A DNA stretch of 64,000 bases from an uncultured Gammaproteobacteria bacterium (GTDB lineage: Bacteria > Patescibacteriota > Microgenomatia > Levybacterales > GWA1-39-11). The DNA is taken from NCBI GenBank assembly GCA_964627245.1, contig CAZVGS010000002.1, forward strand, positions 26,923 to 90,922, in the 5' to 3' direction. The position numbers were made by a program, and so were the translations under genes. Of this stretch, positions 12,495 to 60,139 are shown in pieces. The notes under the pieces are model-generated. The model had not been told where the DNA came from. It made no database searches and saw only the letters and a program-made list of their open reading frames with translations. The number at the start of each line of letters is the position of its first letter. The first letter of the stretch is position 1.

Positions 12495-12714
12495 TCCTCT
12501 TAACACTTCTTACAGGATATATAAAATAAAACTGGTTCAAGGTAGTTTTTAGTGGTTTTAGAAGAAAAACAGGAGCAAATCGAGGTTTTGCAGGTTTAAC
12601 AGTTTTTCTCTTCTCCAGGCTGCAAAACTGAAAAATGTCCAAAACGAGCTAAATTAGCAAGCCCCATTGGGCAATTCTCGCATAGCCTATGGGTCTACTA
12701 GAACTATAGGAATT

Positions 12715-17003: not shown

Positions 17004-17663
17004 TTAGTTGGCAGTATATCCATAGCCTACATCTCCTAAAAATTTGTATTTGTTAGGCTTTAGTTCTTTTTCTTTTAACCAAAGCTGTTGTGAGTATTTC
17101 TGCACTGTCTGCGGGCTCTGATGAATTTGCGCTGAAAGAAGATTTGCAATTTTTCTTGGAGATCTTATGTCTTTAATTATAAATTCTTCCTTGTGTGTTG
17201 GTCTATCAAAGGTCAACTCAACATTGCCTATCCCTATTAGCTCAGGGATTAATCCATACATCTCAACGTCAATTTCAGTGCATCTTATCTGATCCAGTAA
17301 CACGGAATTAATTGCTTCTGAGACCAACGGGCTGTAATGCACCTCAATAATCTGCTTGTTTGTTGCAATATATAGATGGAAACTCCAATGGATTAAATCC
17401 CTAAGCGAAGCTATGCTTCCAATTAAAACAACGAGAAAAAAAGTGCTAAATGCGAGACTAATGCTGTTAAGTGCCAGTAGGAGTGCCGAAGAAATAATTA
17501 CCGCAATAAGAAGTGAGACGAAAGTTTTTTGAATGAGCCGCACAACAAGAGGCAGCCAATGTTCGCGGGTTGCAAATATCAACTCTTCATCTTCGAAAAG
17601 CTTGAACTTTTCAATTTGCGAGTCGTTAAGTCTGTCTCTTAGAAAAAATTCCTTAAATTTCAT
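17004..17663 (-). CDS. membrane protein with bacterial PH-like domain (YdbS/YdbT-like)
   Basis: Two adjacent TM helices followed by a soluble domain. Architecture resembles membrane-flanked bPH proteins. Weak. Confidence 0.35.
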   Translation of the reverse strand: MKFKEFFLRDRLNDSQIEKFKLFEDEELIFATREHWLPLVVRLIQKTFVSLLIAVIISSALLLALNSISLAFSTFFLVVLIGSIASLRDLIHWSFHLYIATNKQIIEVHYSPLVSEAINSVLLDQIRCTEIDVEMYGLIPELIGIGNVELTFDRPTHKEEFIIKDIRSPRKIANLLSAQIHQSPQTVQKYSQQLWLKEKELKPNKYKFLGDVGYGYTAN

Positions 17664-39890: not shown

Positions 39891-40817
39891 CTACTTGAAA
39901 GGTACAGAGTCCAGGTGTGGTCCGGATCCATCGACATAAACAAAGTTTATGTCGAGGTTGATGAGGGACGTGTCCGGAACATTTGGCGCACCCTGAGAAC
40001 ACCCTAGCTGGCACGGAGCAGATGCCCTTGCCACAAAACTGTACGTCCAGGTGTCGCCTTCCAAGACCATCTCGTCCTCAAACTCCCCAGGCATCAGAGT
40101 CTTATCCATCAGGATTTGGATACCAACAGACGTTGACTGGCTTGGGGGCTTATACCAAACCTTTACAAGAACCCCGGGACAAATTGTCCTGTGGTTAACC
40201 AGTGCGACAAAGTTGTTGGGCGGGCTTTCATACCCGTATGATCCTTGCGCATCAGGTGTACAGGAAACCTGGGTCGGAGTGGGTGATACCGGTGTGTTGG
40301 TAGCCGTTGGACTTGGGGTTACGGGCGTATTCGTCGCCGTAAGCCCGGGTGTGGCCGTTTTTGTCGGTGTTGGCGATGGTGAAACGGTACCCGTCGGAGT
40401 GCTTGTTGCAGTCTGCAACGGCGTTACCGATGGTGTGGCCGTTTTTGTCGGTGTTGGCGATGGTGAAACGGTACCCGTCGGAGTGCTTGTTGCAGTCTGC
40501 AACGGCATTACCGATGGTGTGGCCGTTTTTGTCGGTGTTGGCGATGGTGTAGGTGTTCCTGCCAGTGGGCAGTAATACGTAATTCCACCAACAGACTTTG
40601 TTATCCCAACGCTCTGTTGGGGTTGGGGCTGAGACATAGTCCCACCCCCATTTGTCACGTCAATTGCAATACTTTTATAAGGCAAAGCAATGCAACCAAC
40701 TGTCGAGTCGGCAGTAGCTTCAACACTGCCGTCATCTGTCATGATGCTGGCCGTTACAACCATCATCACAACAAAAACCAATGCCGCAGGTGCGGCAACC
40801 CTCAGCAAAGACCTCAC
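39891..40817 (-). CDS. secreted protein with PT-rich tandem repeats (GC-rich gene)
   Basis: Signal-peptide-like N-terminus. 28-aa repeats ([28 protein letters not shown]) followed by a Cys-containing C-terminal domain. Local GC is far above the window background. Confidence 0.6.
40351..40548. repeat. 84-bp tandem direct repeat x2.4, near-perfect
   Basis: Copies start at 40351, 40435 and 40519 and differ by one nt. In-frame coding repeat of the PT-rich protein. Confidence 0.85.
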
Positions 40818-40941
40818 CTCAAACTCCTGTTAGTGTTATAGGTGCTCTCGCAATTTCAAGGAGCGTTCCCACCCCTGGAAAGCTTTTATCCATTGCGGGA
40901 ACACAACTTACTGAGGGTATTATATATGTTTTGCTTGGAAT

Positions 40942-41838
40942 TTACTTGATGCCGCGGTTTTTGTAGATAATTTCAGCTATTTTTGAAATTGTATCCTTTG
41001 CAGACTTTTCATCAACTACATTACTCGACAAAACTACTAGCGTAAATGGAGCAGTTCCTCCGGTGATTATTCCGCCATCGTGAATAAAATTTACTTCATC
41101 CCCTGTTTTGTGATAAATATGAAGCTTTTCAGGCAATAAAACGGGAATCCTATCTTCAAATTCCGTATCTTCCATATGATCCAGTAACTCAAGAGTTAAT
41201 GGCTTTGAGGTGATTTTATTTTGATAAAGCATCTGAAAGAATTTACCAATATCTCTTGCCGTTGTTTCGTTGTCAACCATGCTCGTAGAACCCATTCCTA
41301 TTTGGTAGACATATGCCTGTATATTCTCCTCACCGAGTCTAACCGTCAAAACATGTGCTGCCGTATTGTCGGATTCTTTCAACGAAAGCCTTGCTAAAGA
41401 CTGAAGCGTATACTGTCCGCCGGGCTCTTCATATCTCAAGCTCCCCGTCCCATAATCCTGAATATCTGAGGCTTGAATAATGACAGACTCCTGAAGGTCG
41501 ATTTCATCAATCGATGCTAAATAATATAAATATGCAACAATTGGAAGCTTGTTTATCGAGGCCGCAGTGACAACCGCATTAGAATTAATACTAAAATTCT
41601 CCTCAGTACTCAAATCTTCATAGTAAATACTAAAGTCACCTTTTCTGTCTTTCAAAAAATTTATTATCTCGTCTCTTATTTCTTGAGGCTCTTTTATTTC
41701 CTGCTTACCGCTTATTTTGATTGTTGGTATAAAAAGCAGATTTCTACCTAATATAAGCAGAAAGAAAGAATAAAAAAGAAGAATGAAAAATTTACGCATA
41801 TTACTCAATTGTTCTTGGCCTATACTGCAACGCTTCAA
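40942..41838 (-). CDS. class A beta-lactamase-like serine hydrolase
   Basis: N-terminal TM/signal, then SxxK-like, SDN (KESDNTA) and KTG (HKTGDE) motifs. Confidence 0.5.
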   Translation of the reverse strand: MKRCSIGQEQLSNMRKFFILLFYSFFLLILGRNLLFIPTIKISGKQEIKEPQEIRDEIINFLKDRKGDFSIYYEDLSTEENFSINSNAVVTAASINKLPIVAYLYYLASIDEIDLQESVIIQASDIQDYGTGSLRYEEPGGQYTLQSLARLSLKESDNTAAHVLTVRLGEENIQAYVYQIGMGSTSMVDNETTARDIGKFFQMLYQNKITSKPLTLELLDHMEDTEFEDRIPVLLPEKLHIYHKTGDEVNFIHDGGIITGGTAPFTLVVLSSNVVDEKSAKDTISKIAEIIYKNRGIK

Positions 41839-46408: not shown

Positions 46409-47053
46409 TTGAATATTATGAGTGCTGAAATGCGTCGTTTTTCTCATGATCCGATTGTTGATAAGGCTCTCCTTGAAGAGGTGCCTTCTTCTCATGTCTA
46501 TCCCGTTGATATTATGAATTGGGCTTTTATGAGATATCTTGAAACTGGTAATGAAAACTATGCTCACTGGACATATTTAGGATCTCGTTCTGTATATTTC
46601 TTTGAAAAAGACGGTGAATACAGATTACCCAGAGACAAGGAAGAGGATCATATCAAAAACTGCGCCAAAAGAATCTTGGAAATTGAACCTAAAAGTTTTG
46701 GACACGCAATAAAACTTATTCAAGAAGGGGCGATGCTTGTTAATCCGCTCAGCCTTAATAAACCTAATGGAGAAGACGGGCAAACTCTTGAAGGAACAAT
46801 AGGAATTGTTACTGAAGAAGTAGAAGGGGGAATAATTCGAGAAAATGACCGGGAAGAAGCATTAAGGCTGCTTGCAAGATTGGGCGAAAGAAAACGAAAT
46901 GTTTTGGAAAAAAGATTTGGCATTGGGTATGAAAGGTCTTACACCCTTGATGAAATTGGACAAGAAATTGGAGTAACAAGAGAGCGTATAAGGCAAATCG
47001 AAGCCGAGGCACTAAAAGATTTACGCAATTTTCTCACAACAGAAAAATCTTAG
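46409..47053 (+). CDS. sigma-70 region 4-only protein with an unknown N-terminal domain
   Basis: C-terminal [47 protein letters not shown] is near-identical in pattern to rpoD region 4. No region 2 or 3 is present. Confidence 0.6.
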   Translation: MNIMSAEMRRFSHDPIVDKALLEEVPSSHVYPVDIMNWAFMRYLETGNENYAHWTYLGSRSVYFFEKDGEYRLPRDKEEDHIKNCAKRILEIEPKSFGHAIKLIQEGAMLVNPLSLNKPNGEDGQTLEGTIGIVTEEVEGGIIRENDREEALRLLARLGERKRNVLEKRFGIGYERSYTLDEIGQEIGVTRERIRQIEAEALKDLRNFLTTEKS

Positions 47054-47325: not shown

Positions 47326-47613
47326 TCCGCGATAGCTCAATGGTAGAGCAGGAAGCTGTAAAAAATGCAGCCCTTGAGGGAAACTTCAAGGTGAATAATC
47401 GGGCTAATTCGGGGAAACCCTAAGCATGTCGAGGGGTAATCCCGAGCTAAATTCCTAAGCCAAACTAAGGACTTGTCCTGAGCGAAGCAGAAGGATAAAT
47501 GTGTAGAGACTATATACCCGACACCTCAAATGGTGATGAGATAGTCCAAGCCTTCTAGAAATAGAGGGGTTCTTGTAACTTCAAGGTTCTAGGTTCGAAT
47601 CCTAGTCGCGGAG
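47326..47613 (+). tRNA. tRNA-Asn (GUU) interrupted by a group I intron. Exons 47326-47359 and 47576-47613.
   Basis: Exons join to a 72-nt cloverleaf: U1-A72 and G73 (Asn identity), D-arm GCUCAAUGGUAGAGC, anticodon loop CUGUUAA, T-arm CUAGG-UUCGAAU-CCUAG. Confidence 0.7.
47360..47575 (+). ncRNA. group I self-splicing intron within the tRNA-Asn anticodon loop (between positions 35 and 36)
   Basis: P1 helix: exon GCUGU (U-1 wobble) pairs with IGS GCAGC across loop AAAAAAU. R- and S-like core elements GAGACUAUAUAC / GAGAUAGUCC form P7 (GACUA/UAGUC). P9 hairpin CCUUCUA-GAAA-UAGAGGG. Terminal G at 47575. Confidence 0.65.
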
Positions 47614-49182
47614 CAAAATGGGACGATGACGATACAATAAGTCACTTTCCGCTGTTATATCAATCTTTTTCTCTTGTTCGAAAATTTTAGCTGTTAAAAC
47701 TGCTTGTTTTTTAACTTTCGAACTTTTGACTTCAACTGCTAGTTCTGACAGAAGACTGAAAGGAGCTGTGAAATTAAAGACTAACTTACCTTCATCAAGT
47801 GCTAAGTTTTCAAATACTAAGGTTATTAGCTTTCTTCTTTCATCTCTATTTCCCTTCAAATATAGTTCTTGCGCTTTTTGAGACAACTCATATAAATTAG
47901 AGCCTAATTCTTGATATTTTGTGCTTGATTGTGAGTGCTGTTTAATCGATGTTACAAGTTGATTCTTTTCTTCTGAAAACTCAGTAAATAAAGTATCGTA
48001 TTTAGCTTTCGATATAACTTCATCTAGTCTGTCTTTGTATAAATTGTCCATTCTCTTTTGTATGCGCTCTAAATTTCTATTAAGCTCTGTAATCGCTGTA
48101 TTGTTGTAATTAATCTCTTCCTTGTGAGCTTCTTTTAATGATTTTCTTATCCAGTCGATTAGCCTCACATTTTTAATTTGGAGTCCATCTAGAGCATCAA
48201 CAATCTGTTCTTCAACTTCTTTTTCTTTAGCCCATGCTTGCTGTTTGCAATCTCTATAATGATTACAGTGCCCATAGACAATTCCTTTCTGAATTTCCCA
48301 AGTGATTCGACCCTCACAGCCTACACATTTGACTATTCCTTGAAATAGAAAGTGGTGTTTTCGATATTTAGGAGTAGTTTTGCTCTTAAGAACACTATTA
48401 ACCTTAGTAAAGACCTCTTCGCTGAGAAGTGCTTCATGTTGTCCCTGATGTACATTCTTGTTCCATCTGATTTTACCAATATAGAAAGGGTCTGAAAGTA
48501 GTTGATGAATTCGACTCTTAACTAACTTATTGCCCGTATATCCACGAAGTCCTTCTTGTGACATCATCTCTGTTAGCTTGCTAAGTGAAATCTCGCCTGT
48601 TGCATAGAGTTCAAACATTCGTCTTACGAGAGGAGCTTTCTTCTCGTCTATTACATGTATCTTTCTCCCTTTTTCTCCTACACTGATGTATCCAGGAGGT
48701 GCTTTTGTTGGCATCCAACCTTGAGCTATTTTCTCTTTCTGTCCTTTCTTTACATTTTCTGATAAAAGCTTAACGTAATATTCAGCTGTAGCACATTTAA
48801 CTCTCCACATAAACCATTCGTGAGACCTTGAATCCCTGTGTAAAACACAGCCTTCTTTTGCAAGTCTTATTTGATGGTTTGAATCTTCATGAATCCATTT
48901 ATCAATAATTGGCACGTCAACAAAATTTCTTGTCAATCTATCAGTAGTCTCGACAATAACTCCAAAAATGTCTTTCTTCTTGATGTATGTAATCATTTCA
49001 TTGAATACTTTTCTTTGCATAACTCCAGAAGCTGATTCTGAAACAGCAAAGACCTTAACAACTTCAAGACCTTCTTTTTCAGCGTATTCTCGAAGATACT
49101 TCTCTTGTGCAGGAAGAGAGTAACCTGCTTCTTCCTGTTCTTTACTTGATACTCTACAAAAGATAACTGTTCTCATATACAC
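47602..49182 (-). CDS. large serine recombinase (integrase)
   Basis: N-terminal CRVSSKEQ catalytic Ser region, recombinase domain, zinc ribbon CVGCEGR..HCNHY, coiled coil. The 3' end overlaps the tRNA-Asn 3' end. Confidence 0.85.
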   Translation of the reverse strand: MYMRTVIFCRVSSKEQEEAGYSLPAQEKYLREYAEKEGLEVVKVFAVSESASGVMQRKVFNEMITYIKKKDIFGVIVETTDRLTRNFVDVPIIDKWIHEDSNHQIRLAKEGCVLHRDSRSHEWFMWRVKCATAEYYVKLLSENVKKGQKEKIAQGWMPTKAPPGYISVGEKGRKIHVIDEKKAPLVRRMFELYATGEISLSKLTEMMSQEGLRGYTGNKLVKSRIHQLLSDPFYIGKIRWNKNVHQGQHEALLSEEVFTKVNSVLKSKTTPKYRKHHFLFQGIVKCVGCEGRITWEIQKGIVYGHCNHYRDCKQQAWAKEKEVEEQIVDALDGLQIKNVRLIDWIRKSLKEAHKEEINYNNTAITELNRNLERIQKRMDNLYKDRLDEVISKAKYDTLFTEFSEEKNQLVTSIKQHSQSSTKYQELGSNLYELSQKAQELYLKGNRDERRKLITLVFENLALDEGKLVFNFTAPFSLLSELAVEVKSSKVKKQAVLTAKIFEQEKKIDITAESDLLYRHRPILLRD

Positions 49183-49369
49183 ATATCATTAAGGAGCCTA
49201 GAGTAAATGTCAACCCTCCTCATTGTTTATATTCTTAAACTTTCTTTCAATCATCTTAACCTTACTAAATCATTACTAAACTGTACTTATACTAAGACTG
49301 TACTTAAACCTAACTTCACATTACCTTACTAGAAGATTACTATGTAATATTACTAGTACTATATAGTAA

Positions 49370-49660
49370 CTATATATTTGTGAATTCCTTAGCTTTTTCA
49401 ATTATTTTCTTCTCTAGTTTTTCCCATAACGCAGAATCCTTAATTCTTGCAACCCAAAAATATGCTTTGTTTCTTCCTTTAACAGATGGCGGAGACACAA
49501 ACCATACAGGCGATACAGGTGAATATTTCGTTGTTCCATATCTAACTACAAATCCGCGTATTTCAACTACTTCTTTAATTAATATGTTTGCTATTACAAC
49601 ATTATCCTTTTTGTCTCTAGATTTTATCTCGACTTCTATTTCATCAATTGTTATTTTCAT
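49370..49660 (-). CDS. SpoVG-like small protein
   Basis: 96 aa. The hydrophobic pattern aligns by eye to SpoVG (ITxD.I.V...A.I.I..E.V.IRGF.V..G...W...P). Unverified. Confidence 0.4.
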   Translation of the reverse strand: MKITIDEIEVEIKSRDKKDNVVIANILIKEVVEIRGFVVRYGTTKYSPVSPVWFVSPPSVKGRNKAYFWVARIKDSALWEKLEKKIIEKAKEFTNI

Positions 49661-49797
49661 TTAACCTCCTTTCTTCAATTTTTCTTAGACTTTCAAAAAA
49701 GGTTACGAGTGAATTGCCAGCTATTTCTGCTTCTTCTTCAGAAAGGTGCGCACCATATTCTTCTAGAAAGATGGTTTTTAGCTCTTGGATAGCCTCA

Positions 49798-50109
49798 TTA
49801 CTCATCTTTTTGCCCTCCCTTGTTTGAACCTGTATCAGATTGCGAAAATAAGCGGGTTTTTAGCCATCTTTGTGCATTAAGTAGTATTATGGGCTCAATT
49901 AGCTCTTGCCTCGCCCAAAACGCATTTACCAAGCGCTCAGCCTCATTTGTGTGTTCGAAGATAAAGATTTTTCTATTTGAGTTTATAGAGTCTTTGATTT
50001 CAAGAAGGTGAACGTCTTTTGCCAGAAGGAAAGATGCGAGATAAAAATCAGCAGTCTCTATAGTTTTACGATTCATATTCATACGATTTATTCGTATGAA
50101 GTATCTCAA
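49798..50109 (-). CDS. hypothetical protein
   Basis: 103-aa ORF in the island with no motif recognised. Confidence 0.4.
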   Translation of the reverse strand: MRYFIRINRMNMNRKTIETADFYLASFLLAKDVHLLEIKDSINSNRKIFIFEHTNEAERLVNAFWARQELIEPIILLNAQRWLKTRLFSQSDTGSNKGGQKDE

Positions 50110-50145
50110 AAGAGGGTGCTCGTGAAAGTTGTCAGTTGTAAATCT

Positions 50146-50877
50146 CTAACTGGCAATTTCGTTGAGAAGTTTTAAATACTGAGGCAATTCTCGCATCGTA
50201 GGGATATCATACCTCTCACAAACTCGATAATACGCTTCTTTATGTTGTTTTTTGAGTTCATTCAGCTTCTTATCATCTTCTAAATTCTTTTTTACTAGTA
50301 TTTCCTCGAGCGCTCTATCAACCATTGATGCTCCATCCTCTTCTGCATATAGTATGTCGTTGGGCTTGCCTTTCTTCCAATATTTAAGAAGCTTTTTTTC
50401 TATTTCGAAGTAAAGATTGAGCCCTAGCTTAATATCATCACTCCCTAGCTGGTATCTTTCTTTCTTCTTTTTGAAATCTTTTGGATTAGCATTTTTGAAT
50501 AGCTTCATTTTCTCTACTAAAAGTGACGCTTCATCATACAGCTCTAACCATTGTTCTCTTGTAATAAATGGGTTGTATCGGACATAAACGCCTTCCTCCT
50601 CAACTTTTACAGGGTGGCCACTGACAACAACCTTATCGTTTTTATACTTATATAACTTTTTCCCTCCTAGATATGCTAACTGGTAGAAAAGGCTAGTAAT
50701 GAGCTGTAATTTTTCAAGCTTCTCAATGTCTTTTGCTGTCTGTTTTTTAAGTTTTAGTTTATTGGTTTTCTTTTTTAACTCTCCCCAAAGTACTTTTATT
50801 ACGAAATTGTTTCCAAGCATGTCTTGTTTAATTTCCTTGAAAAGAGCTTTATTTTCGTCTTCATTTTTCATTTTCAT
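50146..50877 (-). CDS. hypothetical lysine-rich protein
   Basis: ORF trimmed to an internal Met to avoid overlap with the divergent downstream gene. K/E-rich with no motif recognised. Confidence 0.4.
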   Translation of the reverse strand: MKMKNEDENKALFKEIKQDMLGNNFVIKVLWGELKKKTNKLKLKKQTAKDIEKLEKLQLITSLFYQLAYLGGKKLYKYKNDKVVVSGHPVKVEEEGVYVRYNPFITREQWLELYDEASLLVEKMKLFKNANPKDFKKKKERYQLGSDDIKLGLNLYFEIEKKLLKYWKKGKPNDILYAEEDGASMVDRALEEILVKKNLEDDKKLNELKKQHKEAYYRVCERYDIPTMRELPQYLKLLNEIAS

Positions 50878-50937
50878 AATTGTGTGTAATTTTATCATGA
50901 CTGCTGTATCTTGTGATAGAATAGCCCTGCAAATCAA

Positions 50938-52264
50938 TATGTATCACACACAACAAAATAAACTTACCATTTTAATAGACCCACTATATATTCACACAGA
51001 AGCATCGCAACAGCTAATCCACAACCAGGTAGCTATTCATACCGTCTTACACTACTTGAAGGGCATTGTTAACAACAAAGTATCAGTGGAGGTAGTTTTC
51101 CCTAAATTCCTTTGGAGTGGCGATTGGAAAGAAAGATATCAAGCATATGTTCCAGCTGATAATCCATTCTACGGAGATGAATTCTTTAAAGTACTTGAAA
51201 ATAAAGAACCTCTACCAGAGTGGGCAAAACAACGGGTGGAACAAACTAAAAGCTATCTTGAAACGAAAAAAGAACCCTACCTTAAGTTTGAAAAATTTCA
51301 ATCTACACCTGAAGGACTAAAGAAACTTTTAGATAGCATGAAAGATGGAACTCTCTTTATGTATCGAGATGCTGATTACCTTTACCATAAGGGGTTTATG
51401 GAACTTATTGATATATATTTTGCTTATGAATGCGACTTACTGCTAACCGCCAATAGAGTGTTGCATGCGGAGAAAAAGAAGCTAAACAGCGACTACCGAT
51501 TATTTCCCGTAAATTACCCAGAGATTTTTGAAGAAATCGAAACTTTTTTAAAGGGTCATCATATCTACATATCTCATGCAAACCCAATATACGGACTCCA
51601 AATGGCAGTTTTCTATCCTATGACTGATACAAAACTAATGGAATATCAAATTTCTATGAATAAAATTCTAGGACTTAAGAAAGATGCACAAGTATACCAG
51701 TATTTTAGAAGCATGTTTTATCACCGCTATTCATTTATTAGGTATGCGATTGACCAGATAAAATTTAACATGTTTCAAGCTGAAAGGCTCGAGGACAATG
51801 GGCTTAGGGCAAGCCATTATTTCCTTGCAAGCTATCACTTGAATAGTTTCTATCTTAATCTATGGGGTTTTATAGATAATCTTGCTTGGGTAATAAATCA
51901 TCTCTACGACTTAGGATTTAATATAGAAAAAACAGCAACAAAAGTAAGTTTTATTAGCAAAGACTATTTAAAGAAATTGAAAGAAAAAAAGCTAGATATT
52001 TATAACTTACTGAAAGAAAAAGAGAACAAAGATTGGCTTGCAAATCTTGCAGACAAACGGCATCCTGCGGCTCATAGAGAACCTTTGTTTATGTCTCCTG
52101 TGTATGACAAGAATGATATGAGCCTAATTGCAGAAGGCTTGATTGTAGTGAATACAAAAAAAGGACAAGAAATGTTTAAGGCAATCAATCACATGAATTA
52201 TGATTTTGAACAACTATTAAAATTTACTGATAATATATTAAAACTTCTTGAATCTAAAGCTTAG
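50938..52264 (+). CDS. hypothetical protein with C-terminal Rx4H (HEPN-like) motif; candidate abortive-infection/defense protein
   Basis: Start set at MYHTQQ (the upstream part of the track ORF overlaps the divergent gene). C-terminal LADKRHPAAHREPL fits the HEPN Rx4-6H signature. About 442 aa. Confidence 0.4.
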
Positions 52265-52304
52265 ATTTAATCTCCCAATTTCCATGAATGAAATAAAGGG
52301 ATTT

Positions 52305-53438
52305 TTATCCAGCTTGATAGAGGGCTTGAATGTTCTTCTTATTCTTGAATAAATCAGGTTGTTTTTTATTTAACCTTTTCAATGAAGTTTTAATCGCAAA
52401 TTCTGAATTATCAATACCTATCCAGTGTCGTTGAAGTGAATCTGCCGCAACAAGTGTGCCACCTGACCCACTGAAGCAATCAAAAACAATATCTCCTTCG
52501 TTAGAAGAGGTTGATATTATCGTTTTTAGTAATTCAAGATTTTTTTCTGTAGGGTAGACTGGTCTAGTTGGGTCCTTAAATTCCCAAATGTCTTGCAACT
52601 TCTTAAATGGCATTTCGTCAGCGTAAACTTTCTTTCTTGGATTACCTGTGCTTGACCACTCGATTAAACCCTTTGCCTCCAACTCATCTAATACCGTTGG
52701 GTCATATCTCCAATGTCTTCCTTTGGGAGGAAGCATTCCTTTCCATGGCTTACCAGTATTTCCATTGCTTGTTTCACCTGGAGCATGAAGCGGATTGGTA
52801 GTATAGTAGCGTCCATTTACATCTATTTTGTTAAATAACCTACTTATCTCGCCTTCTGACCTTTTATGTTTAGGCTCATTCCAAATATATTTGTCAGTTT
52901 TAGTATAAAAAAGTATTAGGTCTTTAATGTTTCCGTAAGCTTTTCTACTAAAATTTTTAGGATTACACTTTATTCTTGTTATGTCATTTCTAAAATTTTT
53001 TTGTCCAAAGACTTCATCCATTATGACTTTTATATAGTGCCCAATTTTATAATCAATATGCAGATAAATAGAGGCTTCATCTGACATTAATTCACGGATA
53101 AAAATGAGTCTTTCACGGATAAATTCCAGAAAGTCTGCCCCAACTAGAGTATCGCTATAAGCAATGCTGTCCTTAAGACTACTGCTTACATGCGATGTTC
53201 TTTCCTCGCTACCTCTAAAAACAGTGTTTGTTGAAAATGGAGGGTCAATATAGACCAAACTGATTTTGCTCTTCAAATTAAAGTCATTAAGAAGTGTTTT
53301 CATTACTCCTAAATTATCTCCTTTAATCAACATGTCTTTTCCATCTTTATAGGAAATGTTCTCGGCATCTAGCTTTACCTGCTTAGTGTTTGAAAGTATA
53401 GATTGTTTAGTTTTCTTACCTTTATAAGTTAATTCCAT
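52305..53438 (-). CDS. DNA methyltransferase (beta-class N6A/N4C) of an R-M system
   Basis: VYIDPPFS motif (IV) followed by C-terminal FDCFSGSGGT (I). Confidence 0.8.
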   Translation of the reverse strand: MELTYKGKKTKQSILSNTKQVKLDAENISYKDGKDMLIKGDNLGVMKTLLNDFNLKSKISLVYIDPPFSTNTVFRGSEERTSHVSSSLKDSIAYSDTLVGADFLEFIRERLIFIRELMSDEASIYLHIDYKIGHYIKVIMDEVFGQKNFRNDITRIKCNPKNFSRKAYGNIKDLILFYTKTDKYIWNEPKHKRSEGEISRLFNKIDVNGRYYTTNPLHAPGETSNGNTGKPWKGMLPPKGRHWRYDPTVLDELEAKGLIEWSSTGNPRKKVYADEMPFKKLQDIWEFKDPTRPVYPTEKNLELLKTIISTSSNEGDIVFDCFSGSGGTLVAADSLQRHWIGIDNSEFAIKTSLKRLNKKQPDLFKNKKNIQALYQAG

Positions 53439-53445
53439 AGTTTTC

Positions 53446-54228
53446 TTATAATGAGTGCAAAAAATCTCTCAGAAGCAAACTGCTCAAAATGTTGTATTCT
53501 TCCTCATGCGAAGTCAAAAAACGATGAAAATTACTTCTTCCTCTCAAATAAAGTACACCATCATATATTGCTACTTTGACCGCATTAACGTTATTATTTT
53601 TCAATAAAGTTAATCCATCAGCGAACTGCCTATCTTGATGTCCTCCAAAATCAGTTAAGAATTTGGCTTCACCAATTACATATTTACCATGCATACGAGC
53701 TATAAAATCCAACCCTTTTTGCTCTTCATAGCCTAAATTATTTTTGGCAAACTGTTTAAGCTGAGCATCGCCTCCATCTAAAATCGCATCTCTTTCTGTT
53801 GCTATAAACTCAAGTTCTGGTAATACCTCTAATCCTAAAGTTTTTTGATTAAGCCACCTTCTAAAAAGAGGACCTATTTGCCTATTCGTTTCCTTTGGCT
53901 CTGAAGTGCGAGCATATATTTTCTCCAGTCCCATTTCATATAATCTGCCACAAATTCGCTTAACTGTTTCTGGATTTCTGTCTATTGCAGATTTATCTCT
54001 TCTCAAGAAAGGAATATATGAGTCCTTAATCGGAAACAATTCTAAACTAAGCAAACTCTTCATAAGCTCTGAATCGTCTCTACTCTTAAATGCTACCTCT
54101 ACATTGCCCCAAGCGGTTTCATTTACTTCTCTTATCGTATCGGGTGCCAATGGATAAACAGTAAAAAGCTCATCAAGATAATTTTTTTGATTTGCAAATT
54201 GGATACTTAAGTCTGTCCAATAATTCAT
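53446..54228 (-). CDS. type II restriction endonuclease (PD-(D/E)xK) candidate
   Basis: Sits between the C-protein and the MTase on the same strand. Putative catalytic D..IGEAK motif. Confidence 0.5.
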   Translation of the reverse strand: MNYWTDLSIQFANQKNYLDELFTVYPLAPDTIREVNETAWGNVEVAFKSRDDSELMKSLLSLELFPIKDSYIPFLRRDKSAIDRNPETVKRICGRLYEMGLEKIYARTSEPKETNRQIGPLFRRWLNQKTLGLEVLPELEFIATERDAILDGGDAQLKQFAKNNLGYEEQKGLDFIARMHGKYVIGEAKFLTDFGGHQDRQFADGLTLLKNNNVNAVKVAIYDGVLYLRGRSNFHRFLTSHEEEYNILSSLLLRDFLHSL

Positions 54229-54388
54229 TTTAGTTATTAGTAAGCTATCTAAATCCTATTTTTCATTCTGTATTGTTTCTTTGCTGTCATAACTTATTTA
54301 ACATTATTTAACATTCTAATATTGTAGTCAACTGACTGAAGTTTGATTAGTATAGCAGAGTAGGCCAGAAAGAAGTCGATAGAAAATG

Positions 54389-54595
54389 TTATTTTAATAA
54401 ATCTGAAACTGGAATTTTTAAAGCTAGAGCAATAAGATTTATTGTTCTTAAAGTAGTATTCCTTTTGCCCGCTTCTATAGCAATTATTGTCCTAGGGTCG
54501 CATTTTGTCATTTCTGCAAGTTCTTCTTGAGTAAGTTTTCTTTGTCTTCGAAACCTTTTTACATTCTCTCCAAACTTTTGATAAATAGAAGCCAT
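54389..54595 (-). CDS. HTH XRE-family controller (C) protein of an R-M system
   Basis: 68-aa HTH_XRE (LTQEELAEMTKCDPRTIIAIEAGKR) immediately upstream of the R gene: classic C-R-M layout. Confidence 0.6.
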   Translation of the reverse strand: MASIYQKFGENVKRFRRQRKLTQEELAEMTKCDPRTIIAIEAGKRNTTLRTINLIALALKIPVSDLLK

Positions 54596-54681
54596 AGTAT
54601 ACCCTTGCTAATCTGACATATATGTCATATAAATAACAGGAAATATATTTCATATTTAGCCTGAAAGTTGAGCTTGAAAGC

Positions 54682-54912
54682 ATGATGAAGTTTTTGATTT
54701 ATTTATTCTTTTGGCCAATAATATTATTGTGGAAATCTCTTATGTGGGGTCTGGGAATAAAACGTACAACGAAATGCTTGAGATGTGGAAGTAAAAAGCT
54801 CAATAAGGATAAACCTAATTGGATACAGCATGCGAGTAGCGTATTGATTGGCTACAGGTCTAGACCTCTTAATGTTTGCAGAGATTGTGGATTTTCTTGG
54901 GAGGATAGATAA
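54682..54912 (+). CDS. small membrane protein with C-terminal zinc-ribbon
   Basis: N-terminal TM helix, CLRCGS ... CRDCG pairs. Divergent from the C-protein gene. Confidence 0.35.
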   Translation: MMKFLIYLFFWPIILLWKSLMWGLGIKRTTKCLRCGSKKLNKDKPNWIQHASSVLIGYRSRPLNVCRDCGFSWEDR

Positions 54913-55289
54913 ATACAAATATAAGTAACTATGCTTCACGACTTTTGTATTTTTATTCCGTAGGGCGAAGCGAGGAACGTTGTATCCAAAAGAGTTCAAA
55001 AATAGATTTTTCAACCTGGGGGTATTAAGTACGAGGAGTTTTAGAACTTAATGTACGCACAATGAAGAAGATAGTTGTTTCACTCTTAAACACATTCAGC
55101 TAAAGTCTTAAAACATCTTATAAACTCTATTCTTAGTATATATTTTATATACAGAAATAATTGATATACTTTTTCATGAGATTTAGTGATGCATTGCATC
55201 ATGAAGTGAGGATTTCACTTGATATCTTGTACATTAGTTCTGGAGACTGTACTTGATTTACCCACTGCATAGTTCGAAAATCGTCTAGC

Positions 55290-56594
55290 TTAGTGAGCAT
55301 TGACGTGCTGTGTTTTTTCCCAATGAGATTGACCTATGAGTAAACGCGTTAATGCTCTGAGGGAGCTAAAACCAATAAGCAATTGAAAGGGGTAAAAAGT
55401 ATATAAGATTTTCAGTGGCGACCACAAAGGATACTTCAGCTTGTAACTTTTCGTAAATTCGTAGAGCCCTACATTGTAGATGATTAACTGGAGAGTCATC
55501 AAAAGTAGTGGGAGAAATGCAAAAAGAGCTATGCCTACTGGTAACTTTAGGGTAAGCACAGTAATAATTGACAAAGGAATAAGCAAAAATAGCAACGCTT
55601 GGAGTTCAGGAAGTACCAAAATGTAGAATGCAAGAAGTTTCTGTGTAAGGCGTGGAAGTTTGAGCCAATCTCCCTTCGAAAGTACCTGCATAAAACCTTG
55701 ATTCCATCTTGTCCGTTGGCGAATGAAGCTCTTTACATCTGTTGGTGTTTCCTCTTGGGTGACATGTTGCTCGCTATATACAACTCTGACTTTTGCTCCA
55801 AGTGCACTAAGTCGAATACCAATATCTGCATCTTCCGTTAAGCAATTTTCATCCCAGCCTCCAGCCTGTTCAAGACGAGTTTTTTTGAAAAATACAGTGT
55901 TACCACCAAGTGGAATAATTCCTATTTTTGCAAAGAAATGAAGCGTAGATTTAAACCAAAAGAAATACTCCAATACATTCAAAGATGAGAACCAAGAAGA
56001 GCGAAAATTCATTAATTGTACTCCTGCTTGCACAACGTCTGCTTTTTCTCGTTCCAAGATTGTGTTGACAATATTATAGATATCTTTATGTGGTTGGTCT
56101 TCAGCATCGAAGATAACAACAATGTCTTTTGTTGCGTGTTTTAGTCCAATATTGAGACTATGTGGTTTGTTAATCGGAGTGTCATCAAATACGACAAGAC
56201 GTATGTTCTTTTTCCCGAGCAATTCAATAATCTCTTTGGCTTTCGAAATAGTAAGCACGTCATCATACCTACACACAATAATTATCTCTTTAAGTTCTTC
56301 AGGATAATTGATATTTGATACTGCCTTTATTGTATCCCCAACAACTTTTTCTTCGTGTCTTGCAGGGATAATTGCACTAAACGATTGTTTTGGTACTGCA
56401 TAATTTTTTGGGGGCGCATCTTTCTCCATTCGTTCCGCATCTTCCCATGCATACAACATCCAATAAATACTAAAAATACTTTGAAATGATAATAGTGTAG
56501 AAAGAAAAGCAACAGCAAATATAATTAATGTTTGCCCTGTAAAGACTCCAGCACTGAGCAAAGTATAAATTGCGATACCAACTCCTCCAAGCAA
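55290..56594 (-). CDS. family 2 glycosyltransferase, processive type (QxxRW)
   Basis: DxD (FDAEDQ) and QRTRWNQG motifs, with multiple TM helices flanking a GT-A domain. Confidence 0.8.
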   Translation of the reverse strand: MLGGVGIAIYTLLSAGVFTGQTLIIFAVAFLSTLLSFQSIFSIYWMLYAWEDAERMEKDAPPKNYAVPKQSFSAIIPARHEEKVVGDTIKAVSNINYPEELKEIIIVCRYDDVLTISKAKEIIELLGKKNIRLVVFDDTPINKPHSLNIGLKHATKDIVVIFDAEDQPHKDIYNIVNTILEREKADVVQAGVQLMNFRSSWFSSLNVLEYFFWFKSTLHFFAKIGIIPLGGNTVFFKKTRLEQAGGWDENCLTEDADIGIRLSALGAKVRVVYSEQHVTQEETPTDVKSFIRQRTRWNQGFMQVLSKGDWLKLPRLTQKLLAFYILVLPELQALLFLLIPLSIITVLTLKLPVGIALFAFLPLLLMTLQLIIYNVGLYEFTKSYKLKYPLWSPLKILYTFYPFQLLIGFSSLRALTRLLIGQSHWEKTQHVNAH

Positions 56595-57061
56595 AAGGCC
56601 GAGGAAAAACTATCCAATTATGGTATTCCCCAAGATACTATTTATACGTTCACGCTAACGGACAAGGCAGGTAATCCTGTTTATGGAAGCAATGAACCAG
56701 GCACTTCTGAATCGGCAACAGGAGCAAATGATTCCAGTAACTCTATTGCTAACGCAGTGGGAGATAAAGTAGACAATAACAGAACAATAGACGGACTTAT
56801 TGGCTTTATCGAGAAGGCGGTCATTGGTGGGATACTAGTTGTCGTGGTAATTGTTGCCGCTATTCTATTCTTCAGGAAGAAAAAGACTACCAAATAAACT
56901 CAGTAATTGCCGTTTGCACCTTTTCAATACCCTAACGAGTGAGTCGGATTCCCCACCACACGGACGGCGCGTGGTGATCATTAAGGCCTGCTGAAGAAAT
57001 GAACATTAGTTGCCCTGAGGTGGATAATCAAAAGTTGGCGTGTGAAGTCAGAACAGAGAGA

Positions 57062-57721
57062 TTAACATCCGAGAGCTTGGAGACACTGTTGGCGAGGTAT
57101 GCCTTCAGGTGCTTGGTTGCATACTTCTTTGTTACATTCTTGTTTCTTGACTGTCTCCAGATCTTTTATGGTGAGTCCGCTATCAGTATTTCCCGTCTGG
57201 ACATTGAACTCCATAAACTCAATATTTCCGGGGCGAGAGAAAACGCTTCCGTCAACTATCCATGGCTTACAATCAAACTTGGTGTCTTCGGCGATATCTC
57301 CATCTTTGGTCGAAAACAATTTGCCCTGCTCTTCCGGCGTAACAGCGGATTTCATGCCCTGAGGGAACATTGATCCCCAGAGGTAATTGTACCCACCATC
57401 ACGAATTACGTGCGCCTCCATGGGTACTGCGCCCTTCTGTTGTATAGTAAAATCTCCGCGGATTTGCTTGGCGCCATTGGCAAGGTACACTGTGCCTGAC
57501 GAAACATTTGTACCGTCATTATGTTCAAATGTGCATTCGAGATTCTGCCCGCGTGAAATAAAAGAAGCAAATGTGCCGCTCGTACTTTCTTCTGTCTTCA
57601 GGTTTTCTTCCATTGCCACATCCCCGTCAGGGTTCTGAGTACCAATATTGGTGTATGCAAAATATCCGCCACCGACGAGTACGACCGCTCCTATTACTGC
57701 AATTAAAATTGTCTTGTTCAT
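57062..57721 (-). CDS. hypothetical secreted/anchored protein
   Basis: N-terminal TM/signal and a Cys-containing soluble domain. No motif recognised. Confidence 0.45.
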   Translation of the reverse strand: MNKTILIAVIGAVVLVGGGYFAYTNIGTQNPDGDVAMEENLKTEESTSGTFASFISRGQNLECTFEHNDGTNVSSGTVYLANGAKQIRGDFTIQQKGAVPMEAHVIRDGGYNYLWGSMFPQGMKSAVTPEEQGKLFSTKDGDIAEDTKFDCKPWIVDGSVFSRPGNIEFMEFNVQTGNTDSGLTIKDLETVKKQECNKEVCNQAPEGIPRQQCLQALGC

Positions 57722-57792
57722 ATTCGAGTTAATTTTACTATAATTCTACTCATTTTATCAAGGCGCAAGTTAAGAGTTTAGCGAATTTACGA

Positions 57793-58326
57793 TTATTTTC
57801 TGTTGCTAAAAAGTTCATACGAGACCATTTCGACAAGCGGTCTGCGGTCTGACTCCTGATGAATTTTTTGCGTTTCTGCCTGGTACCCAAGTGCAAGACT
57901 ACCAAGAAGAATGTGATCGTCTGGGATGTTGAGCATTTTTTTTGTAGTTTTATCATCCAGCGTTACCCAACACCCACCAAGTCCCAAATCCCACGCAGCC
58001 AACCACATATTTTCGATGGCACAAGCTCCGCTAAGCACATGTTGTTCATGTTCGGATAACCACTCGTCAACTTTAGCATTTTTATCAACAGTCACAACAA
58101 TCACTATGTTTGCCTTTGTAAGAAAAGAGCCATGATGAGCATGTGGCATGAGTCTATCTATTGTTTCCTTATTTTTAATGACAATAAATGTCCACGGGTG
58201 GGAATTGAGAGGGCTTGGCGCCCATCGGCCACAGTCCAAGATCTGCTGAAGAATATCATCAGGAATATCTTGGGTAGTCCAGTTACGAGTTGCCCTTCTT
58301 GTTTTTATGGCATCAAGTGTATTCAT
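57793..58326 (-). CDS. nitroreductase family protein
   Basis: IKTRRATRNWT and PSPLNSHPW, typical of NAD(P)H nitroreductases. Confidence 0.75.
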   Translation of the reverse strand: MNTLDAIKTRRATRNWTTQDIPDDILQQILDCGRWAPSPLNSHPWTFIVIKNKETIDRLMPHAHHGSFLTKANIVIVVTVDKNAKVDEWLSEHEQHVLSGACAIENMWLAAWDLGLGGCWVTLDDKTTKKMLNIPDDHILLGSLALGYQAETQKIHQESDRRPLVEMVSYELFSNRK

Positions 58327-58570
58327 GGTTTGATAATATCATGCGACTTGGTCCTATTTCCAGAAGCTCAGAAACCTCCCCACTTCCTTCACGGTCCACT
58401 CCGGATATTCCAGCTCGCTGATCCAATCAATTCGTCCGAATTCATACCATTTCTCGAGCAAAATAAGCTAAAAATTACTTACCACTGCGCCAACTCTCTC
58501 TTTTTTCGTTTTTTTCCCTGAAAGAAAATTGTCACTTCTTTTGTATTAATAGTAGAAAGGAGGTGAAAAT

Positions 58571-58948
58571 ATGAAAAAATCAATATTAGCAATATCCGTA
58601 CTGGCATTAGGAGCGGGAGTATTGTTTGCTACGATACCAAGCGCCGATGCTTTCAGGGGTGATCCGAATACTACCGGCCCCAACTATACACACGAAAGGC
58701 ACGAGGCAATGGAAAAATCATTCGAGAACAAAGACTACAATGCTTGGAAAAAACTCGTGCAGGGAAAAGGTAGAGTTACCCAAGTAGTCAATGAAAAAAA
58801 CTTTAGCCGTTTTGCCGAAATGCACGAGCTTAGAGAGGAAGGCAAAATTGATGAAGCCAATAAAATAAGAGCCGAACTGGGGCTTGGGCTCCACAAAGGC
58901 AAAGGTGCCGGTCAAAAAATGGGAATGGGTCAATACCAAAATAAATAA
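58571..58948 (+). CDS. small secreted protein (YckD/DUF2680-like)
   Basis: Signal peptide, then ERHEAMEKSFENKDYNAWKK, resembling the YckD family. Confidence 0.4.
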   Translation: MKKSILAISVLALGAGVLFATIPSADAFRGDPNTTGPNYTHERHEAMEKSFENKDYNAWKKLVQGKGRVTQVVNEKNFSRFAEMHELREEGKIDEANKIRAELGLGLHKGKGAGQKMGMGQYQNK

Positions 58949-58960
58949 TTACCCTCTCCA

Positions 58961-58998
58961 TATACCAAGACCCCGACTTAAGATCGGGGTTTTGGTAT
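58961..58998 (+). terminator. rho-independent terminator hairpin
   Basis: tataccaa-ga-ccccga cttaaga tcgggg-tt-ttggtata followed by a T-run, directly after the 58571-58948 gene. Confidence 0.6.
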
Positions 58999-59033
58999 AT
59001 AAAAACTCTGTTAAAAGAAAATATGAGATTTAA

Positions 59034-59588
59034 TTGTATTACAATTGCGGTATGATGAATTCAAATCTTACAGATGAAAAATTGGTTGAACTGATTCGTA
59101 GCAAAGATAAAGAGCGGTATGCTGAAATTATCAATAGATATCAGGATAAGCTTATGAGATACACACGATATTTGATAAACGACAAAAATAAATCAGATGA
59201 TGTAGTCCAAAATACCTTCATCAAAGCCTACATTAATCTTTATGGGTTTGATACAAAAAAAAAGTTTTCAAGCTGGATTTATCGCATTGCCCATAATGAA
59301 GCCATTAATGAAGCGAAAAAGCATCACAAAGAACTACCTATGGATCACGACTTTGATGCGCCATCAAAAGAATCAATTGAAGAGGAGTTCGACAGAAAAG
59401 AAATTAATAAACAAGCACACAGCTGCTTGAGGCAGATGCCAACCATGTATTCCGAGCCGTTAGCTCTTTACTATTTGGATGAGAAGTCATATGAGGAAAT
59501 CAGTGATATTCTAAGAATACCAATGGGAACAGTCGCAACAAGAATTAATAGGGCAAAAATTTTAATGAAGAAAATATGTCAAAAATAA
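59034..59588 (+). CDS. ECF-type RNA polymerase sigma-70 factor
   Basis: Region 2 (DVVQNTFIKAYINLYGFD..SWIYRIAHNEAIN) and region 4 (YEEISDILRIPMGTVATRINRAK). Confidence 0.75.
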   Translation: MYYNCGMMNSNLTDEKLVELIRSKDKERYAEIINRYQDKLMRYTRYLINDKNKSDDVVQNTFIKAYINLYGFDTKKKFSSWIYRIAHNEAINEAKKHHKELPMDHDFDAPSKESIEEEFDRKEINKQAHSCLRQMPTMYSEPLALYYLDEKSYEEISDILRIPMGTVATRINRAKILMKKICQK

Positions 59589-60139
59589 ACTTAAAACTTA
59601 AAAATCAACAACTCAATAAGGGTCACTCCAAAATTAATTTGGAAGAAATTGTAATGAACAAAATAAAATCAGGTCAGGCGAAAATGAAACCCAAATGGTA
59701 TTTTGCAGCTGGTTCTCTGTTAATGATTATGGGTTTGGTCAGCTTAACGCTTTCTGCAATATTTTTATTTAACTTAACAGTATTTTTAGTAAGAAAGCAT
59801 GGACCGGGATATGGAAGACTAGAAATAATGCTCAACACCTTTCCTTATTGGATACCAATATTAGCTGTTTTGGGGGCGGTCTTGGGAATTTTGCTTCTAA
59901 AAAAGTATGATTTTTCCTATAATAAGAACTTTCCTCTTATATTAATGGTCTTTTTATCTTCAATAATCATTGCGGCACTTTCAATCGACTATCTAGGTCT
60001 TAATGACGTTTGGTCAAGACGCGGTCCGATGAAAAGATTTTATCAACACTTTGAAAATCAAAAACACCATTTTTTTGAAAGACGCAACAATATACAATAC
60101 AACCGCACGGAGACTATATTTCCGCAAATACGATTCTGA
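59576..60139 (+). CDS. membrane protein, putative anti-sigma factor partner of the ECF sigma
   Basis: Overlaps the end of the sigma gene and has 3 to 4 TM helices. Assigned by position only. Confidence 0.35.
   Translation: MSKINLKLKNQQLNKGHSKINLEEIVMNKIKSGQAKMKPKWYFAAGSLLMIMGLVSLTLSAIFLFNLTVFLVRKHGPGYGRLEIMLNTFPYWIPILAVLGAVLGILLLKKYDFSYNKNFPLILMVFLSSIIIAALSIDYLGLNDVWSRRGPMKRFYQHFENQKHHFFERRNNIQYNRTETIFPQIRF

Follow-up and report, generated by a model that had tools for sequence, protein, structure and literature searches.

The 3′ end of a tRNA-Asn(GUU) gene in a 64,000-nucleotide (nt) stretch of an uncultured bacterial genome (contig CAZVGS010000002.1, positions 26,923 to 90,922; hereafter the window) is adjoined by a recombinase gene, several small genes, a gene for a protein with an HEPN motif and a restriction-modification (R-M) system. 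Do these genes form a mobile island, and does the HEPN protein act alone or with a partner? The region is an integrative element of ~7.7 kb that occupies the tRNA-Asn(GUU) 3′ end in a genome of Levybacteria (Candidate Phyla Radiation, CPR/Patescibacteria). The R-M island and the tRNA intron are of known kinds, and with the HEPN protein a named, unstudied family gains a new member. We propose a mobile element moved by a large serine recombinase (LSR), with a controller-regulated R-M system as cargo and a stand-alone HEPN effector. Taken as a whole, this account appears probable; its island and R-M parts are held with high confidence, and a role of the HEPN protein in abortive infection (Abi) or addiction is about evenly balanced.

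Assignment of the protein to HEPN is solid. Its C-terminal domain (residues ~250-441) has the all-alpha HEPN fold and matches the Cthe_2314-like HEPN family, PF18730, at 31.4-33 bits (curated cutoff, 27.1), as do 13 of its 16 close homologues. R374 and H379 are invariant in these 16 and 100% conserved in 113 family members, KRHPAAHREP is essentially invariant in the 16-sequence alignment, and D313 and D272 are acidic in at least 97% of the 113. A word-indexed search returned the 16 full-length homologues, the named ones being from CPR bacteria (Pacebacteria, Levybacteria), and an exhaustive profile search returned 555 cluster representatives at E≤1e-3, mostly 400-460 amino acids (aa) long. Exact-sequence look-ups of the window protein gave no record, and the only PADLOC match of the long open reading frame (ORF), HEC-03A, was non-significant (E 0.029). 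An earlier note, made from the DNA letters of this locus, had described an HEPN-like protein of ~442 aa ending in an Rx4H motif. The HEPN character and the motif were confirmed; the motif does not close the protein but belongs to the interior of the C-terminal domain, and the length is 441 aa when counted from Met 50939, the start common to most homologues. The note also counted the protein among uncharacterised candidate defence genes; it does have a family, the Cthe_2314-like HEPN family, which was named in 2013 (PMC3710099).

Upstream of HEPN is an alpha/beta domain (residues ~1-215). In a Foldseek comparison of the predicted model, the top match was the PIN-like RNase P HARP (7e8j_B; probability 0.98), suggesting a PIN-like fold. 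Several positions of the N-terminal half are conserved among the 113 family members, including D166 (90%), E201 (86% acidic), G206 (93%), T170 (66%) and D14 (~69% acidic); the fourth acidic position of the PIN site is Asn in the subfamily of the window protein. The CARF-HEPN proteins Csx1 and Csm6 followed HARP as weaker Foldseek matches, and the main alternative to the PIN-like reading is a Rossmann-like sensor with CARF-like logic, in which binding of a ligand or RNA would switch on HEPN, as in Csm6/Csx1. We regard this alternative as rather unlikely, though as a serious competitor for the N-terminal domain.

Eight independent contexts of HEPN homologues were compared. In the window and in locus L001, the gene lies in an LSR element at tRNA-Asn, beside a Type II R-M system. 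In L002-L006 the LSR element that holds it is at tRNA-Met, and two small ORFs downstream of HEPN there is an SNase-type nuclease (PADLOC candidate SNc+LTD); in L013 it directly follows Type III Mod and Res in an LSR/DUF5659 element. In L097 it has a Pol-beta nucleotidyltransferase (PDC-M05A) on one side and an Old/GajA-type nuclease on the other; this copy is apparently split into ORFs of 326 and 132 aa (positions 1904-3310; a frameshift or pseudogene). The remaining copies lie between DnaJ and signal peptidase, with no mobile genes (L007); between two RRM-protein genes near RpoD and tRNA-Asn, with no recombinase (L098); between ComEC-like and metallo-beta-lactamase genes, with a tRNA-Ala + DUF5659 block 1.3 kb away (L011); and at a contig edge (L009). 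Recognised or candidate defence genes were found beside HEPN in four of the eight contexts and LSR elements in three, and in none was a fixed partner gene required. Because its defence neighbours are varied and lone copies occur among housekeeping genes, we read the HEPN protein as a stand-alone Abi or addiction RNase; from these comparisons its gene appears to behave as a defence or toxin gene that is complete in itself and spreads horizontally.

Between the window and the Pacebacteria elements, HEPN is 61% identical, compared with 22% for the recombinase and 27% for the DUF5659 protein, which fits either gene exchange between elements or strong constraint on HEPN. Conservation of this kind, the highest of any gene between these distant elements, could also mean that HEPN serves the element's own biology (RNA processing, copy control or plasmid-like addiction only) rather than anti-phage defence. 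Three of the eight contexts being LSR/DUF5659 elements would agree with such a role, as would the result that no relatives of the HEPN protein were detected among IMG/VR viral contigs and BFVD structures. However, copies occur outside recognisable elements, among housekeeping genes (L007, L098), the wider family is large, with its 555 representatives, and the unrelated defence neighbours, such as Old/GajA in L097, are the usual behaviour of portable defence or toxin genes. A role confined to the element is therefore considered unlikely.

The earlier note had pointed instead to the divergent 263-aa/442-aa pair as a candidate novel Abi or toxin module. Its description of the smaller protein as Lys-rich was correct (18.5% Lys), whereas the length was not: the probable start, ATG 50877, gives 243 aa, as in the homologues. 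In a two-gene toxin-antitoxin or Abi module, the role of the 243-aa protein would be to neutralise the HEPN RNase or to regulate it. The two genes share a 61-bp divergent intergenic region with overlapping promoter-like hexamers; a promoter/terminator scan gave nothing above chance. Their products are similarly conserved relative to L001 (86% for the 243-aa protein, 85% for HEPN), compared with 53-65% for the leftward genes, suggesting co-movement or retention, but conservation of 85-94% continues through the methyltransferase (M), endonuclease (R) and controller (C) genes, so that the whole right half is conserved and not the pair alone. Only three homologues of the 243-aa protein were found, the window's own counted among them. 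One, in L094, belongs to a DUF5659/LSR module (in the order 244 aa, DUF5659, 50 aa, 241 aa, LSR, tRNA-Asn), and the 153 nt between the 244-aa gene and the contig end encode no HEPN N-terminus, whereas HEPN is 61 nt away in the window. Elements with the 61%-identical HEPN show no detectable homologue of the 243-aa protein at that position: by BLASTP none of the genes nearest HEPN in L002 (208, 164 and 265 aa) is related to it, and neither these nor the corresponding gene in L013 (275 aa) have PADLOC matches. HEPN homologues also stand alone in L007 and L098. Finally, the 243-aa protein has no assignable family or fold, with no match in Pfam, PHROGs, PADLOC or NCBIfam and an AlphaFold2 model that is unusable (predicted local distance difference test, 42). 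The two-gene module is accordingly judged improbable, and the claim of a novel paired module was not sustained. Since the 243-aa protein has only three homologues, is part of the L094 module and has no detectable relative among the genes nearest HEPN in L002, it appears from its distribution to be a backbone gene of one element lineage and not a conserved partner of the stand-alone HEPN effector. Within that lineage, a regulatory link between the two is conceivable, in view of the short divergent intergenic region and their equal conservation with L001.

How far the element extends is indicated by two observations. DNA homology between the window and L001 runs from 49729 and stops at exactly 55299 (last letters …GTTCGAAAATCGTCTAGCTTAGTGAGCA), and both ends carry GAGCA; the island is therefore placed at ~47611-55299, close to the span of 47602-55290 given by the earlier note. 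Right-end DNA resembles the T-arm and acceptor of a tRNA, with a T-arm-like arm and the GAGCA core at 55272-55299. GC content is 0.341 in the island and 0.399 and 0.380 in the flanks. A search for direct and inverted repeats across the island detected no long attachment-site repeats, as expected for an integrase of the serine type. The predicted recombination sites are attP …CCCATTTTGCTCACTAAGCTAGACG… and attB …CTAGTCGCGGAGCATTGACGTG…; the predicted circular junction would read …CGTCCCATTTTGCTCACTAAGCTAGACGATTTTCGAAC… on the minus strand and the predicted empty attB …GGTTCGAATCCTAGTCGCGGAGCATTGACGTGCTGTG….

The closest relative of the island is L001, in which an intronless tRNA-Asn is joined to the recombinase as in the window. 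Identity between the two is 85% for HEPN, 94% for R, 93% for M, 88% for C, 86% for the 243-aa protein and 62% for the recombinase, and a second serine-recombinase element directly follows the right end of the first in L001. Several Levyibacteriota metagenome-assembled genomes (MAGs) have an RpoD 95-98% identical to that of the window, and gene order upstream (window ~34.6-46.4 kb, to RpoD) is conserved in relatives, with synteny breaking at the tRNA. We mapped 80 RpoD-anchored Levybacteria loci, ~34 of which have tRNA-Asn within 10 kb; ~27 of these were informative, their sequence continuing for 2 kb or more past the tRNA. In 12 of the ~27, the tRNA-Asn 3′ end is directly abutted by a gene for a serine recombinase with 24-57% identity to that of the window. 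L094 has the same LSR/tRNA-Asn layout, and in the Pacebacteria elements the LSR abuts tRNA-Met. In a comparison for an empty tRNA-Asn site, which the earlier note had suggested, relatives were seen to vary at this tRNA, some having no LSR (L014, L020) and others different LSR elements, but no site with the same right flank was found. A degenerate search for tRNA 3′ ends at the other occupied loci gave no equivalent of the right end within the 10-kb flanks. These junctions, the L001 comparison, the synteny break and the tRNA-abutting LSRs bear out the proposal of a tRNA-Asn-linked integrative island. The opposite reading, that the block is ordinary vertically inherited DNA beside which a recombinase lies by coincidence, is effectively refuted, since, although no clean empty site with a matching right flank was recovered, synteny is lost exactly at the tRNA, which in many relatives is abutted by divergent LSR elements; L001 has the element again, directly followed on the right by a second LSR element; joining the two ends puts the recombinase (int) ORF back in frame; and GC of the island is below that of the flanks.

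Some relatives show further variation around this tRNA. In L014, the last 13-14 nt of tRNA-Asn (CTAGTCGCGGAGCA) are found twice more, at 11380-11393 and 12529-12541. Measured from an intact tRNA-Asn (11196-11267) without a recombinase, these copies are 113 nt and 1.27 kb downstream, and they are probably scars of past integration or excision, or a decayed element. The tRNA of L014 follows RpoD by ~107 nt. The MAG contigs of L017 (11238-11284) and L018 (11895-11941) stop at nucleotide 47 of tRNA-Asn, which fits a failure of assembly where strains differ at an integration hotspot.

The integrase shows an unexpected feature. It contains Resolvase (PF00239, 71 bits) and Recombinase (PF07508, 58.5 bits) domains, a zinc ribbon below cutoff (Zn_ribbon_recom, PF13408, 19.6 bits) and the N-terminal motif FCRVSSKEQ, and it matches the integrase family phrog_95 at 252 bits. 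It has 526 aa when read from GTG and 524 aa from ATG 49176. The gene overlaps the tRNA by 13 nt; its last four codons (LLRD-stop) are encoded by the tRNA and its TAG stop is the CTA of the T-stem; these features agree with the LSR overlapping the tRNA-Asn 3′ end that had been noticed earlier. When the two island ends are joined at GAGCA, the ORF grows in frame from 526 to 555 aa (…YRHRPILL|TKLDDFRTMQWVNQVQSPELMYKISSEILTS-stop), and the same joining in L001 (45-1616 + 8433-8533) gives an in-frame ORF of 552 aa. Because the last ~31 codons and the stop lie at the opposite end of the island, attP is placed inside the int ORF. The second recombinase of L001 reads the tail contiguously because it lies directly after the right end of the first element.

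With the 555-aa form as query, 1372 homologues were obtained at E≤1e-30. Longer homologues have an unbroken motif, RP.LL..W[DN][DE]FRT..W...PEL, examples being P0283 (…VRPILLALTNTFRTYDW…), P0198 (…YRPTLLATWDDFRQTRW…) and P0260 (…LLAKWDDFRTLRWISSVDCPELM…). Of the 120 best homologues, 57 are interrupted immediately behind the RP(I/V)(W/L)L anchor, the tail is contiguous in 16 and other endings are found in 47; 37 stop shortly after …DSN…, five end in …LRD-stop like the window's and 15 end at most six residues from the anchor. DSN is the reverse-strand reading of the tRNA T-loop (GGATTCGAACC as GAT-TCG-AAC), and the 22%-identical Pacebacteria recombinase also ends in …PVIPTLLRD-stop inside tRNA-Met. 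In the unsplit gene of L106, coding DNA (TGCTCGCAGGATGGGACGATTTTCGAAC) resembles the 3′ end of tRNA-Asn in reverse complement (TGCTCCGCGACTAGGATTCGAACC); L106 and L107 do not prove an episomal form, as their contigs with unsplit int are not circular and contain no tRNA. Matches to a hidden Markov model of the tail were also detected in L011. A match in L049 was tried as a right end and rejected, being a relic C-terminal LSR fragment: ~60 codons (17443-17631, minus strand) with the tail motif contiguous (…LRPIWLERWEDYRTTDWVNYLEYPEF…), 3.4 kb downstream of tRNA-Asn and with no intact recombinase between.

The simplest reading is that attP within the int ORF resembles attB, that crossover occurs in or next to GAGCA and that the integrated state has a tail-less integrase. 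Judged from these reading frames, integration very likely splits the int ORF. Whether the split also serves regulation is a more doubtful matter, and we think it possible rather than likely. In an isoform switch, integrase of full length (555 aa here) would come from the episome and the tail-less isoform from the integrated element, and the switch would stand in for, or supplement, a separate directionality factor. Equally tentative is the broadest form of the proposal, in which a large CPR integrase clade would use tRNA 3′ ends with attP in its own frame, an isoform switch would help to set the direction or frequency of recombination, and the PIN-like-HEPN protein spread by these elements would be a new single-gene Abi RNase. 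As far as the searched literature shows, a tRNA-targeting LSR clade with attP in its own gene is undescribed. According to Mageeney et al., serine integrases had not been known to target tRNA genes; they counted 14 such cases in 297, compared with 44.5% for tyrosine integrases, and noted that experimental proof would be required (PMC7192596). For this reason the recurrent tRNA-targeting LSR clade seems noteworthy. A 2025 survey of patescibacterial genomic islands reported R-M cargo but is silent on integrases, serine recombinases and tRNA targets (PMC12455944).

The integration target (attL) is the 3′ end of tRNA-Asn(GUU), whose gene, as the earlier note had recognised, contains an intron. This was supported by an Rfam match to RF00028 (47349-47568; 77.2 bits, E 7e-18) and by the canonical tRNA that results when 47360-47575 is removed; the spliced sequence is letter for letter that of the intronless L001 tRNA-Asn. 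ARAGORN detected no tRNA near 47.6 kb in the raw window, and a brute-force scan of splice sites gave ambiguous anticodons. The sites were settled by P1 pairing and the terminal G: intron GCAGC pairs with GCUGU at the exon end, with U.G at the splice site. From the sequence, the 5′ exon ends in …GGAAGCUGU, the intron starts with AAAAAAUGCAGCC… and ends in …UUCUUG, and the insertion lies between anticodon positions 35 and 36. Introns of this class at this tRNA-Asn position, self-splicing in vitro, are known from Patescibacteria, in a report that leaves recombinases and integrases unmentioned (PMC13011429). By its group I match, 35/36 insertion, U.G pair and terminal G, the window intron belongs to that class. 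Among close relatives the intron is absent from L001 (1-58), L014 and L021 and present in L015, L016, L019 and L020, and its presence is independent of that of the island.

Cargo on the right of the island includes a routine R-M system of a known kind. Matches to HTH_3, Tsp45I and N6_N4 methyltransferase families (Table 1) agree with the complete controller-endonuclease-methyltransferase operon described earlier. Both palindromes upstream of C are identical in L001 despite divergence of the flanking non-coding DNA.

Table 1. Features of the tRNA-Asn-linked island; positions are those of the window.
Feature	Position	Strand	Basis or remark
tRNA-Asn(GUU), 73 nt spliced	47326..47614	+	exons 47326-47359 and 47576-47614; ARAGORN on spliced sequence
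Group I self-splicing intron	47360..47575	+	Rfam RF00028
GAGCA crossover core, left junction (attL)	47611..47615		same pentamer at 55295-55299; joining restores recombinase ORF
LSR, integrated C-terminally truncated form, 526 aa	47602..49182	-	Pfam, phrog_95
96-aa backbone ORF	49370..49660	-	30% identical to 120-aa ORF in L002 element
53-aa conserved small backbone ORF	49644..49805	-	53% identical to 48-aa L001 ORF, same position
DUF5659 protein, 103 aa, hallmark backbone gene	49798..50109	-	PF18903, 35.7 bits
243-aa Lys-rich helical protein	50146..50877	-	three homologues; L094 neighbourhood
441-aa two-domain protein, predicted RNase effector	50939..52264	+	PF18730; R374-x4-H379
Type II DNA methyltransferase (M, N6_N4 class), 377 aa	52305..53438	-	PF01555, 138 bits; PADLOC MTase_II, 557 bits
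Tsp45I-family Type II endonuclease (R), 260 aa	53446..54228	-	PF06300, 373.5 bits, full length; PADLOC REase_II, 342 bits
Controller (C) protein, HTH_3, 68 aa	54389..54595	-	PF01381, 49.8 bits; PADLOC Control_protein models
Putative C-box operators, palindromes TGACATATATGTCA (54614-54627) and GAAATATATTTC (54640-54651)	54614..54651		sequence reading
76-aa ORF, hydrophobic N-terminus, two CxxC pairs, divergent from C	54682..54912	+	83% identical and intact in L001
Right island end (attR): detached recombinase tail TKLDDFRTMQWVNQVQSPELMYKISSEILTS-stop and GAGCA (55295-55299)	55199..55299	-	L001 homology stop

Sequence and comparison show an LSR element at tRNA-Asn, with attP in the int ORF, a C-regulated Type II R-M system as cargo and, as second cargo, an HEPN protein whose catalytic motif is intact. 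In the proposed mechanism, the LSR would mobilise the element. Recombination at GAGCA leaves the tRNA intact and truncates the integrated int to 526 aa, and rejoining of the ends, as in excision to a circle, restores the 555-aa ORF. The backbone, consisting of recombinase, small ORFs, DUF5659 protein and 243-aa protein, accompanies two selfish or defensive cargo modules. One of these, the R-M system, would cut incoming DNA that is unmethylated and, by punishing its loss, stabilise the element. The other, the HEPN protein, would act alone as a conditionally activated RNase that halts an infected or element-cured cell, giving Abi, post-segregational killing or both, and its N-terminal domain could be a second metal-dependent nuclease or a regulatory substrate-binding module gating the HEPN site.

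Several results weigh against this account. No circular form was observed, and no clean empty attB with matching flanks was found among the 80 RpoD-anchored loci, because none of them carries the genes downstream of the window's island. The window element is without the AAA_25 gene of L001, so that its autonomy may be incomplete and a replication function may have been lost. GTSAC, the recognition sequence of Tsp45I and the putative one of the window homologue, is not avoided in the window (42 observed, 43 ± 6 expected) and thus gives no independent sign of long residence or of exact specificity. As to the HEPN protein, PADLOC-DB v2 assigns it to no known system, sequence profiles of its N-terminal half match no PIN family in Pfam and no PDB entry, and a full-text literature search found no functional study of the Cthe_2314 family. 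The 2013 survey of HEPN proteins reported that the motif is conserved in this family, with architectures and operons listed as 'None detected' (PMC3710099).

Among the smaller backbone genes, the DUF5659 protein, which the earlier note had listed as a 103-aa protein, also occurs in the L001, L002, L011, L013 and L094 elements. The 53-aa ORF has no family match in Pfam, PADLOC, PHROGs or NCBIfam, and L094 has a 50-aa ORF at the same position. The suggestion that the 96-aa protein is SpoVG-like found no support at the sequence level, as the protein gave no match at all in Pfam (E≤0.1), NCBIfam (E≤0.01) or PDB sequences (E≤10). At the place of this ORF, L001 has a gene for a 344-aa AAA_25 (RepA/helicase-like) protein (1708-2742).

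DNA beyond the island is also variable, because in no relative do the genes to its right (55290-60139) have counterparts close to RpoD and tRNA-Asn. From inspection of their translations, their products include a GT2-type membrane protein of 434 aa, a nitroreductase-like protein of 177 aa and an ECF-type sigma factor together with its putative membrane partner. On the other side, between RpoD and tRNA-Asn, a 214-aa sigma-factor-like ORF (46409-47053) has no orthologue at that place in the 80 loci, and its tblastn matches are to RpoD region 4 only. Local GC peaks of 0.48-0.51 occur at 1001-3000 and 40001-41000, compared with 0.386 for the whole window.

In CPR/Patescibacteria, whose genomes are tiny, few defence systems have been recognised and little has been described of the mobile elements. 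Here, serine integrases systematically land in tRNA genes, which has been considered essentially a habit of tyrosine integrases (PMC7192596). The split of int provides a sequence signature (…RP[IV][WL]L followed by tRNA-encoded residues) by which element ends can be located in metagenomes, as well as a testable idea of how directionality may be controlled, and the predicted natural attP and tRNA attB pairs are candidate tools for genome engineering. In addition, an orphan HEPN family, 13 years old, gains a proposed two-domain architecture and a context of defence islands and mobile elements, and so becomes a concrete candidate when new anti-phage or addiction RNases encoded by a single gene are sought.

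Compared with known systems, the window protein is a typical Cthe_2314-like HEPN (PF18730) in that it keeps the Rx4-6H motif and, at ~440 aa, has the length of most of the 555 representatives. To the 2013 description of this family (PMC3710099) are added here a conserved N-terminal alpha/beta domain, PIN-like by fold only, and the occurrence of CPR members in serine-recombinase elements, beside R-M, Old or SNase genes. AbiD/F, AbiJ, AbiU2 and AbiV, together with AbiA's C-terminal domain, belong to different HEPN families and have N-terminal domains different from that of the window protein, which matched none of the PADLOC models for known single-gene HEPN Abi systems. Eukaryotic Swt1 likewise combines an N-terminal PIN-type fold and HEPN in one polypeptide (PMC3710099). 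However, Swt1 HEPNs are of the Abi2/Swt1 family and have lost the catalytic motif while PIN is active, whereas in the window protein the HEPN motif is invariant and the other domain is PIN-like by fold only; the comparison is an analogy and not a homology of architecture. Type VII toxin-antitoxin systems of the HEPN-MNT kind (SO_3166/SO_3165, PDB 5yep; 7ae2) differ as well, the window protein being three times larger and having an extra domain. No nucleotidyltransferase gene is present in the island, and among the contexts one was found only in L097, two genes away.

The R-M system corresponds to controller-regulated Type II systems of the Tsp45I family, with a full-length endonuclease match, a beta-class methyltransferase, an HTH C-protein and upstream palindromes. 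With integrases of the phiC31, Bxb1, A118, CcrB and XisF types, the window LSR has in common an architecture of Resolvase, Recombinase and zinc-ribbon/coiled-coil domains and a crossover core that is short and lacks long direct repeats. Unlike them, it has a tRNA 3′ end as target and attP within the int ORF, and its integration removes ~31 codons. Broussard et al. are said to have described in 2013 mycobacteriophages, such as BPs, in which attP lies inside the repressor gene and truncation depends on integration. The window element is similar to BPs in that attP within a coding sequence makes the integrated and extrachromosomal proteins differ at the C-terminus. In BPs, however, the split gene is that of the repressor and the integrase is of the tyrosine type, whereas in the window it is the gene of the serine integrase itself that is split.

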